This document shows, piece after piece, positions 48,345 through 49,229 of a DNA stretch of 64,000 nucleotides (position 1 is the first letter of the stretch; each line of letters begins with the position of its first letter). The notes under the pieces were generated by a model. The model worked only from the letters and a program-made list of their open reading frames with translations. It was not told the DNA's origin and searched no databases. The DNA is from Nannocystis bainbridge (GTDB lineage: Bacteria; Myxococcota_A; Polyangia; Nannocystales; Nannocystaceae), in contig NZ_JAQNDL010000001.1 of the NCBI RefSeq assembly GCF_028368995.1, positions 3,008,001-3,072,000 of the forward strand, given 5' to 3'. The translations under genes were made by a program, and so were the position numbers.

Positions 48345-48509
48345 ACGTGCCTGTCTGCCCGCGGCGATCGTCGCCCGCTCTCGCCCGCGCCGCGCGGACG
48401 CATGCCTGAGCTCCGCGGCCGCCGCACGAGCGATCCGCCGCCTCGACTTCACCGGCCTCGCCTGCCACCGTGAAGATCGGCCAATACGCGGCCGAGAAAG
48501 CGAGTCACC

Positions 48510-48584
48510 ATGAAGACGAAGACGAGCACCCGCGCCGGCTCTGGCTCCGGCTCTGTTGGTACCAACCCGCTGTACAGCGGCTAG
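48510..48584 (+). CDS. Small peptide 1: MKTKTSTRAGSGSGSVGTNPLYSG
   Basis: Paralogous to three downstream sORFs; shared upstream cgagaaa-cgag..accATG context. Confidence 0.8.
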   Translation: MKTKTSTRAGSGSGSVGTNPLYSG

Positions 48585-48652
48585 CGCCGCCCCTGCCCGA
48601 CATGTCCTTTTTGACATGTTGCGAGGCAGCCGCCGCGACCGCTGTGGCATCA

Positions 48653-48667
48653 CGGCACACGCGGTGC
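48653..48667 (+). promoter_or_regulatory. sigma54-like -24/-12 promoter upstream of peptide 2
   Basis: CGGCACACGCGGTGC has GG-N10-GC spacing; 42 nt before the ATG. Confidence 0.55.
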
Positions 48668-48709
48668 CGCCACGACAACGAACCACCGGACCCGAGAAAC
48701 GAAGGACTG

Positions 48710-48763
48710 ATGAAGATCAAGACCAACACCCGCGCCGGCGGCGACAACCCGCTCTACCACTGA
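48710..48763 (+). CDS. Small peptide 2: MKIKTNTRAGGDNPLYH
   Basis: AAGGA RBS; same leader and NPLY motif. Confidence 0.82.
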   Translation: MKIKTNTRAGGDNPLYH

Positions 48764-48838
48764 CCTCGCAGAGCATGTCCCTCCGGACATTTCCCCATGC
48801 GAGACGAACGCCAGGCCGCGACGACCGCCGCGGCCCCA

Positions 48839-48853
48839 CGGCACACGCAGTGC
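48839..48853 (+). promoter_or_regulatory. sigma54-like -24/-12 promoter upstream of peptide 3
   Basis: CGGCACACGCAGTGC. Confidence 0.55.
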
Positions 48854-48915
48854 CGCCCGATCGCAACCCGACAACGGCAGCGGGCCACCCGCCCGCGGCC
48901 GAGGACGAGCTGACC

Positions 48916-48972
48916 ATGAAGACCAGGACCCACACGCGCGCTGGCGGCGTCGCCATCAACCCCCTCTACTAG
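48916..48972 (+). CDS. Small peptide 3: MKTRTHTRAGGVAINPLY
   Basis: gaggacgagctgaccATG context; same leader and NPLY motif. Confidence 0.82.
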   Translation: MKTRTHTRAGGVAINPLY

Positions 48973-49032
48973 CCGTGTTCTTTAAACCTGTCCGCTGTGC
49001 GAACCCGTCGGCGGGCGAGAAACGAGCTGACC

Positions 49033-49095
49033 ATGAAGACGAGAACCAACACCCGCGCCCGCGCCGGCACTGGCGAAAACCCGCTGTTCACCTGA
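49033..49095 (+). CDS. Small peptide 4: MKTRTNTRARAGTGENPLFT
   Basis: gagaaacgagctgaccATG context; same leader and NPLF motif. Confidence 0.8.
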   Translation: MKTRTNTRARAGTGENPLFT

Positions 49096-49167
49096 CCTGC
49101 CGCGACGTGTCCTTCCGGCACGGCCCTGGCAGGGCGAACGATCTGGGCGCCGTGACCACCGCCCCCA

Positions 49168-49182
49168 CGGCACACGCAGTGC
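49168..49182 (+). promoter_or_regulatory. Third sigma54-like motif, with no peptide ORF downstream
   Basis: CGGCACACGCAGTGC, pointing into the 3' end of the antisense tRNA operon. Confidence 0.45.
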
Positions 49183-49229
49183 CGCCTCGATCGCAGCCGT
49201 GAGCCGCAGAGGGCTTTCAGCCGCACAAA

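Follow-up and report, generated by a model that had tools for sequence, protein, structure and literature searches.

Four tandem micro-peptide genes of Nannocystis bainbridge as putative leader-bearing precursors of exported peptides

Genes of only 17-24 codons escape annotation, and four of them stand in tandem in a stretch of 64,000 nucleotides (nt) of Nannocystis bainbridge DNA (contig NZ_JAQNDL010000001.1, positions 3,008,001 to 3,072,000; hereafter the window). What do these four short open reading frames (sORFs) encode, and what would become of their products? The genome (11.05 Mb, 71-72% G+C) is labelled G000 here; other G-numbers denote compared genomes, and L-numbers fetched loci. The best reading of our data is that the sORFs are leader-bearing single-core precursors, which would be cleaved and exported in trans as 7-14-residue NPL[YF] peptides, probably acting as signals. 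We consider this reading probable, though well short of certain.

All four sORFs are on the forward strand. sORF1 (48510..48584, +; 24 codons) encodes a 10-residue leader and a 14-residue tail with NPLY. sORF2 (48710..48763, +; 17 codons) combines the leader with a 7-residue tail that also carries NPLY, sORF3 (48916..48972, +; 18 codons) has an 8-residue tail with NPLY at its end, and sORF4 (49033..49095, +; 20 codons) has a leader with an extra RA and an 8-residue tail with NPLF. Their common plan is MK[TI][KR]T.TRA(RA)G, followed by a spacer of whole codons and by NPL[YF] 1-4 codons ahead of the stop. Re-translation reproduced exactly the coordinates, strand and translations of the initial annotation, as well as the synonymous variation that it had noticed in the NPL codons (CCG CTG, CCG CTC, CCC CTC and CCG CTG in sORF1 to sORF4). 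Its claim of a conserved upstream context holds for a purine-rich GAGRA-type stretch ahead of all four ATGs, but not for a 16-nt element (see below), which is present at sORF1 only. A repeat finder placed the four leaders in one direct-repeat family and the four NPL stretches in another, and a regular expression for the full leader...NPL peptide, applied to all six frames, found only these four in the genome.

Are these sORFs genes at all? A degenerate DNA pattern (leader, any spacer of 3-50 nt, NPL) was run on 401 genomes of the class; it gave 8 matches, compared with 0 for a reversed-pattern control. Despite the free spacing, leader and NPL are in frame in 8/8 matches (ATG-to-NPL distances of 54, 36, 42, 45, 39, 36, 33 and 36 nt), and a stop codon follows 1-4 codons past NPL in every one of them. 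Across 12 aligned codons of the 8 NPL members, the variable columns at codon positions 1, 2 and 3 number 6, 3 and 9. A Shine-Dalgarno-like 4-mer is present 4-17 nt upstream of 42 of the 54 sORFs of the family described below, in comparison to 14.5% of all ATG/GTG codons in the same loci. Furthermore, another member of the N. bainbridge genome (G000:C1:2380163) has an orthologue in G076 (genus g14) with 16/17 residues alike; the two differ by 8 synonymous codons and 1 non-synonymous codon, including an AGC/TCC serine switch, and their flanks are unrelated. In G069, four family members, each having a start and a stop of its own, succeed one another in different frames at intervals of 2-5 nt. Judged by the in-frame spacing, the codon-position variation, the Shine-Dalgarno-like 4-mers, the synonymous change between orthologues and the packed frames of G069, the four window sORFs are real, coding genes whose peptides are predicted to be translated.

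One may nevertheless ask whether the sORFs could be non-functional as peptides, being cis-acting leader ORFs or attenuators, or else a duplicated non-coding repeat that stays open by chance. The units are indeed tandemly duplicated DNA, and two conserved hairpins follow each of them. However, the next genes encode tRNA-Cys on the opposite strand and no same-strand gene follows, so there is nothing to attenuate; besides, conservation at the peptide level with synonymous change, the consistent in-frame spacing and the presence of members in unrelated DNA contexts across genera and phyla all speak against this explanation, which we regard as very improbable.

To which family do the sORFs belong? 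The initial annotation named NPL(Y/F), besides the leader, as a shared motif. NPL(Y/F) is common to the four window sORFs, but it marks only a small subfamily (NPL[YF/H/R/A]; 8 members, i.e. 4 in the window, 2 in G001, 1 in G003 and 1 in G069), whereas the whole family is defined by the leader MK[TVIA][KR]T.[TVI][KR]AG, with 54 distinct sORF copies at 32 loci of related genomes. The leader-alone DNA pattern gave 35 matches vs 2 for the control in the 73 genomes of the taxonomic family, and 24 vs 5 in a 401-genome sample of the phylum; nearly all of the matches are ORFs of 14-40 codons (median 20). The detection was pattern-based, so divergent leaders are missed; the neighbourhoods considered covered 3-10 kb, and the genomes are related to one another. 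Among the 54 copies, the conserved leader positions are M1 and K2 (54/54 each), T3 (38/54), K/R4 (51/54), T5 (50/54), V/T/I7 (52/54), K/R8 (54/54), A9 (49/54) and G10 (53/54). From position 11 on the sequence is hypervariable, with S/G/A/T as residue 11 in 36/54.

Family members often form arrays of 2-4 with related tails (e.g., the xPW and SFR..G sets of G069, or the three copies of G651). The N. bainbridge genome holds at least 7 members: the four in the window, the orphans C1:2380163 (+) and C1:1904506 (-), and one beside an MNIO gene. Nine family sORFs in three groups are present in G575 (L104, corresponding to G575:C162:48000-66000); two groups are each followed by a ~1200-aa Trans_reg_C-AAA_16-TPR regulator, and the other by a 503-aa protein. 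Most family loci are orphans, about 28/32 in relatives having no adjoining exporter. All-against-all ORF clustering of 25 related loci showed only kinases and histidine kinases to recur, both of which are abundant. Pfam and NCBIfam, searched at E up to 10, had no family for six members of at least 20 aa (these scans took peptides of this length, and 11 shorter aligned peptides of the window family were left out). In G069, the GTG start of the NPL-type member (L036 1488-1544 (-)) and the TGA stop of a TerB-domain gene overlap (GTGA), which suggests translational coupling of this member.

How might such peptides leave the cell? In four loci of relatives the sORFs accompany genes for an HlyD-type adaptor and an ATP-binding cassette (ABC) exporter with a Peptidase_C39 domain. 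In G067, sORF, HlyD and Peptidase_C39-ABC exporter directly adjoin in this order. G019 and G088 have the gene of a 968-aa methyltransferase-fusion protein between sORF and HlyD, the C39 exporter coming last. G651, which belongs to a different taxonomic family, has three sORFs in convergent orientation to the genes for HlyD, C39-ABC and a second ABC protein, and a GNAT gene is located upstream of the sORFs. For the C39 domain of G651 and a neighbouring 30-aa peptide, the predicted complex scored 0.02 vs a mark of 0.32, which is no evidence either way. The 968-aa protein (L092 1630-4533 (-), L093; G019, G088) carries a C-terminal HemK-like (NPPY) methyltransferase domain, and its residues 52-119 (~70 residues) are common to the C-terminus of the 503-aa protein encoded after the G575 sORFs; this region may be a leader-binding domain.

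The N. bainbridge genome has one HlyD - C39-ABC - second ABC cassette of this exporter clade (G000:C2:2934813-2940892; Peptidase_C39 E 9.6e-21), and no family sORF was found next to it. Over 150 residues, its C39 domain shares 60-62% identity with those of the operons of three metagenome-assembled genomes (MAGs), two labelled Acidobacteriota and one Verrucomicrobiota; Q18, C24, H104 and D120 are invariant in all four domains, and the catalytic residues of the N. bainbridge exporter are intact. Its best NCBIfam match is the NHLP-type exporter model TIGR03796 with 171 bits vs a cut-off of 853, and it falls below the cut-off of every curated model.

The first 550 residues of this exporter served as query for the clade. 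Of the 73 genomes that make up the taxonomic family, 21 gave a match, all of them in the genera g1, g4, g10, g14 and g15. The leader sORFs are confined to the same five of 17 genera. After removal of G006, G079 and G083, whose pattern matches are not sORFs (the one in G079/G083 is the start of an 82-aa ORF), 14 genomes of the taxonomic family possess both, 1 the sORF only (G061, 67% complete), 7 the exporter only and 51 neither; thus the exporter is present in 14/15 sORF-positive vs 7/58 other genomes (Fisher p 4e-9). The clade occurs in 22/401 genomes of the phylum sample, namely in 7/9 pattern-positive vs 15/392 pattern-negative ones (p 2e-8), both p-values overstating independence because the compared genomes are related. 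The two pattern-positive genomes of this sample without exporter (G436 and G441) have single doubtful matches.

Relatives of a different architecture occur in other phyla. For a search of the protein database, 49 members were combined in a profile with a natural 40-aa one at its head, which matched 127 proteins at E <= 1. No Pfam domain was present on the 120 of them that were listed, and 119 of these 120 are either nameless or entered as 'hypothetical protein'; one 20-aa family member is recorded as 'hypothetical protein PPSIR1_29083 [Plesiocystis pacifica SIR-1]'. Many of the matches repeat the unit [ML]K[VI][KR][TS].[VI]KAG, a core of 3-11 residues and the follower NHNQTxARG, the last core running to the stop. 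The unit is repeated from 2 to >10 times, and some precursors have at least 7 units with an identical core several times. A scan of species-representative genomes gave 54 such multi-core loci in 32 assemblies (by record name), labelled Blastocatellia, Pyrinomonadaceae, Bryobacterales, Solibacteraceae, Verrucomicrobiota, Planctomycetota, Gammaproteobacteria, Acidimicrobiia, Egibacteraceae and 'Heliomicrobium'; single-core micro-ORFs of 13-15 codons occur in this set as well. In 19/54 loci, each from a different assembly, HlyD and C39-ABC genes are located directly 3' of the precursor gene. An extracytoplasmic function (ECF) sigma factor gene (PF07638) is present in 19/54 loci, and a gene for a protein of ~1000 aa with Ser/Thr kinase, transmembrane (TM) helix and TPR parts in 18/54; the usual order is sigma factor, kinase, precursor, and kinase and exporter occur together in 8/54.

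An NCBIfam scan of 7 multi-core relatives gave no relevant family. In one of them (L150 8981-9481), the repeated LKVKSSVKAG resembles the N-terminus of type B ribosomal protein L36 (NCBIfam E 7e-4, 19.5 bits vs a cut-off of 70), which we take as a chance similarity between basic N-termini. In L150, L151, L153 and L156 (labelled Blastocatellia / Acidobacteriota), several triads of ECF sigma factor, Ser/Thr kinase (TPR) and multi-core precursor genes stand in tandem on one contig, and one of the triad precursors repeats an identical 11-residue core several times.

The evidence ties the family to a specific exporter clade, and its range extends from the N. bainbridge genome into MAGs that carry the labels Acidobacteriota, Verrucomicrobiota, Planctomycetota, Gammaproteobacteria and Actinomycetota; the window array is a single-core, NPL-type branch of this large unannotated family. 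The family is apparently undescribed, as it is covered by no Pfam or NCBIfam model and no paper on it was found. Leader and follower strings were not found printed in the text of papers (supplementary files being outside this search), nor was there literature combining DUF2063 with Sorangium or peptidase-containing ABC transporters (PCATs) with Acidobacteria; the accessible parts of the MNIO and RiPP (peptides of ribosomal synthesis with post-translational modification) literature held no match to the family.

Taken together, the leader with its hypervariable tail and the exporter linkage in 4 loci of relatives and 19/54 multi-core loci favour the suggestion of the initial annotation that the array encodes diversified, processed or secreted peptides. 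In the mechanism that we propose, each precursor would be made in the cytoplasm, and its leader would be recognized by the C39 cysteine-peptidase domain of the dedicated ABC exporter. As the only cassette of this clade in the genome is the one at G000:C2:2934813-2940892, it would act in trans. The leader would be cut at or just after the conserved A-G, i.e. after G10 or residue 11, and the tail of 7-14 residues would be exported via the HlyD-type adaptor. With S/G/A/T as residue 11 in most members, a cut after this residue would bring back a G-[GSA] pair.

Outside the cell, the peptides would probably act as extracellular signals, of which the tandem array could supply four diversified variants; we put this role forward with less confidence than leader recognition, cleavage site and export. 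They might be sensed by TM Ser/Thr kinases such as the one encoded directly upstream of the array (45165..48155, +; 996 aa; Pkinase E 2e-18). This protein has one TM helix (aa 754-772), which places its C-terminal ~220 aa, as predicted, outside the cytoplasm, and its gene occupies the position of the kinase gene in the multi-core loci. It may be a sensor, with a putative link to the sORFs. A signalling role is suggested by the order of sigma factor, kinase and precursor genes in other phyla, by the receptor-like topology of the kinases, including that of the window, by the TPR regulators of G575, and by the repeated identical cores, which raise dose rather than diversity.

Do known systems work in this way? 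Double-glycine and PCAT systems comprise the ComC-ComAB pheromones, class II bacteriocins and the NHLP/Nif11 families with HlyD and two-ABC cassettes; their canonical leader has 15-30 aa, is hydrophobic at -4, -7, -12 and -15, and ends with G-G/A/S. The family resembles them in its N-terminal leader ending in a conserved small pair and followed by a variable tail, in the linkage of relatives to a C39-peptidase ABC exporter with HlyD and a second ABC protein, and in precursor genes that often stand apart from the exporter and occur in multiple copies. The end of the leader fits either A-G or G-[GSA] as -2/-1, the canonical G-G not being present in all 54 members. In contrast to curated PCAT systems, the predicted products have 4-14 residues, the exporter is far below the model cut-offs, and no NCBIfam or Pfam leader model matches. 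The repeated units of leader motif, core and NHNQTxARG in the relatives resemble the precursors of cyanobactins (PatE) and of fungal alpha-factor; unlike these, the window genes are separate, tandem and single-core, and the neighbourhoods showed no PatA/PatG-type protease or heterocyclase.

Several observations weigh against export by this route and against signalling. The leader differs from canonical double-glycine leaders in being 10 aa long, basic (K/R at 2, 4 and 8), Thr-rich and alternating in a strand-like manner, and it has no hydrophobic residue at -7 or -12, only a -4-like V/I/T; a cut after G10 would put A at the usual -2. The window holds no exporter, HlyD or modifying gene, the exporter cassette being on another contig. 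A looser leader pattern gave 0 matches in 10/10 exporter-positive, pattern-negative genomes (6 control matches), and none of 16 other Myxococcota-type and 16 phylum-level cassettes showed a family sORF within ~8 kb; the association of sORF and exporter is one-way at best, and the exporter clade also exists without the family. In 25/54 multi-core loci, exporter, ECF sigma factor and kinase are all missing within the fetched flanks. As for the kinase, its gene is kept in G007, which lacks the sORFs, kinases are very abundant in these genomes, and by a rough estimate kinase adjacency in related loci is at about chance level.

Could the peptides instead stay in the cell? If they were cytoplasmic micro-proteins, their N-terminus might attach to the ribosome, to a kinase or to some other regulator. 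This N-terminus is strongly basic and weakly L36-like, the sole support for the latter being the sub-threshold NCBIfam match on a multi-core relative mentioned above; the many loci without adjoining exporter and the position of two G575 sORF groups ahead of cytoplasmic Trans_reg_C-AAA_16-TPR regulators would also fit. However, the direct operon linkage, in 4 + 19 loci, to genes for the C39 exporter and HlyD, the nearly complete dependence of sORF presence on that of the exporter clade, and the multi-core architecture, whose repeated identical cores imply proteolytic release, make us consider retention in the cytoplasm quite unlikely.

Export would, in turn, be compatible with chemical modification in trans, and the peptides might be RiPP precursors whose modification precedes or replaces simple proteolysis. 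The counts over 54 members show the RiPP layout, in which a conserved leader is joined to a hypervariable core. A candidate modifier would be the MNIO (DUF692) and DUF2063 pair of the same genome; another leader-reading enzyme may serve as well. Indeed, a 24-codon ORF (G000:C2:1460299-1460370) with the internal leader motif K[TV]KTN[TV]RAG and the C-terminal end SCKG is located directly upstream of this pair (cluster G000:C2:1458629-1460370 (-), L078 8629-10370; PF05114 MbnB_TglH_ChrH E 5.8e-83), and the whole looks like a very small RiPP cluster of the MNIO kind, of which bufferin/HvfA-type systems with a DUF2063 partner are known. G001, G003, G005 and G007 have kept the leading 29 nt of this sORF; the adjoining enzyme pair was confirmed only in G001. 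Other members precede the 968-aa HemK-like methyltransferase-domain protein or follow a GNAT gene. The initial annotation had stated that no modifying enzyme is adjacent; this is correct for the window, but a paralogue with the same motif elsewhere in the genome does adjoin MNIO and DUF2063 genes. Against modification of the window peptides, all five PF05114 genes of the genome are located outside the window, the four window tails are devoid of Cys, the usual MNIO target, which is present in only 8/54 family tails, and no MNIO gene was found within ~4.5 kb of the other 28 related loci examined. Furthermore, ORF clustering of the 19 MAG operons with HlyD and C39 exporter (largest clusters named by Pfam) revealed no other recurrent enzyme family. 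On balance, we find modification in trans rather unlikely for the window array. If the peptides are natural-product precursors, hundreds of very short, diverse cores together with a minimal 10-residue leader would be of use for peptide engineering. Ahead of another of the five MNIO genes (G000:C3 upstream of 1682701) stands a lipoprotein-like ORF that carries EKxCG-type Cys motifs in repeated form and resembles copper-binding oxazolone/thioamide precursors.

If the exported peptides are signals, this would be leader-guided peptide communication where none is known, with TM kinases as candidate receptors and ECF sigma factors as candidate regulators. How could such a system be controlled? The 16-nt element GCCTGYCA-N3-TGAMG (48460..48475, +) lies 50 nt ahead of sORF1, 49 nt ahead of the G001 and G003 sORFs, and 99 nt ahead of precursor genes in L150 (a MAG labelled Blastocatellia) and L169 (labelled Heliomicrobium sp.). 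It has 2 copies in the whole 11-Mb genome vs 1 for a reversed control; as the pattern was derived from these same sequences, only its rarity counts as an independent observation. The element is a candidate promoter or operator. ECF sigma factors controlled by Ser/Thr kinases are known from groups such as ECF43 (PMC7826278), and the PF07638 sigma factor and kinase genes directly preceding a multi-core precursor gene resemble such pairs, as far as the accessible text of this source describes them; that text names neither a peptide nor an exporter as partner. In the window, the kinase gene has no ECF sigma factor gene beside it, the nearest ECF-like match being at 12992-13510. We tentatively suggest, as possible though not the likelier case, a circuit common to several phyla in which C39-exported micro-peptides would act on TM TPR Ser/Thr kinases, these on ECF sigma factors, and these in turn on the peptide genes via GCCTGYCA-N3-TGAMG. 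If true, it would be a quorum-sensing-like circuit in mostly Gram-negative soil bacteria, built from parts that are not known to work together.

What do the surroundings tell about the origin of the array? It is flanked by the Ser/Thr kinase gene, tRNA-Cys genes and an M61 peptidase gene. G001 has the same order of kinase, sORF (two copies) and tRNA-Cys, whereas in G007 kinase, three tRNA-Cys genes and M61 peptidase follow one another with no sORFs between. The window array is thus an accessory insertion that was expanded by tandem duplication. Three tandem tRNA-Cys(GCA) genes (49230..49513, -) are the next neighbours; two of them are 97% identical over 88 nt, and their array is kept in G001 and G007. 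A link of the sORFs to them (e.g., Cys-tRNA-dependent peptide extension) was rejected, as G007 has the same synteny without sORFs and the members in G003 and G069 are not located near the tRNA genes. A role of the M61 glycyl-aminopeptidase (50063-51847) as processing enzyme is unsupported, since G007 keeps the gene in synteny and lacks the sORFs. The M61 peptidase is, like the tRNA-Cys genes, a bystander.

Two hairpins were found after the sORFs. The first (48600..48621, +; RNA fold) follows sORF1 on an ACATGTC palindrome and has equivalents at 48775-48790 and ~49106-49123. The second, CGGCAC-N5-GTGCCG (48651..48671, +), has further copies at 48837-48857 and 49166-49186; it is located 54-76 nt past the stop of each unit, and these 3 copies, all in the window, are the only ones genome-wide. 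In RNA folds, its sole variable base (G/A) falls in the loop, and the element is also present 3' of the G001 and G003 sORFs. The hairpin pairs come after sORF1, after sORF2 and after the sORF3-sORF4 pair, which suggests three transcription units; the second hairpin is a candidate terminator or 3'-end element. A reading of CGGCAC-N5-GTGCCG as sigma-54 promoter was set aside, because its distance is constant to the preceding stop and not to the following gene; it is also weakened by the fact that 3/6 cases have no same-strand gene after them. Matches of the pattern in G022 and G058 are inside long ORFs and due to chance.

The palindrome GGACATGTCC has 956 copies in the 11-Mb genome vs 0-26 for four comparison palindromes, and ATGTCC-N3-8-GGACAT has 657. 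In the window, palindromes of the GGACATGTCC type are present e.g. at 48295-48347, 48600-48621, 48775-48790 and 51857-51902, just after genes in the cases inspected; the element may be a repetitive extragenic palindrome (REP)-like or terminator element. Between the tRNA-Cys array and the M61 peptidase gene, the decamer GCACGCGCAG is repeated in tandem in about 7-8 copies (49643-49732).

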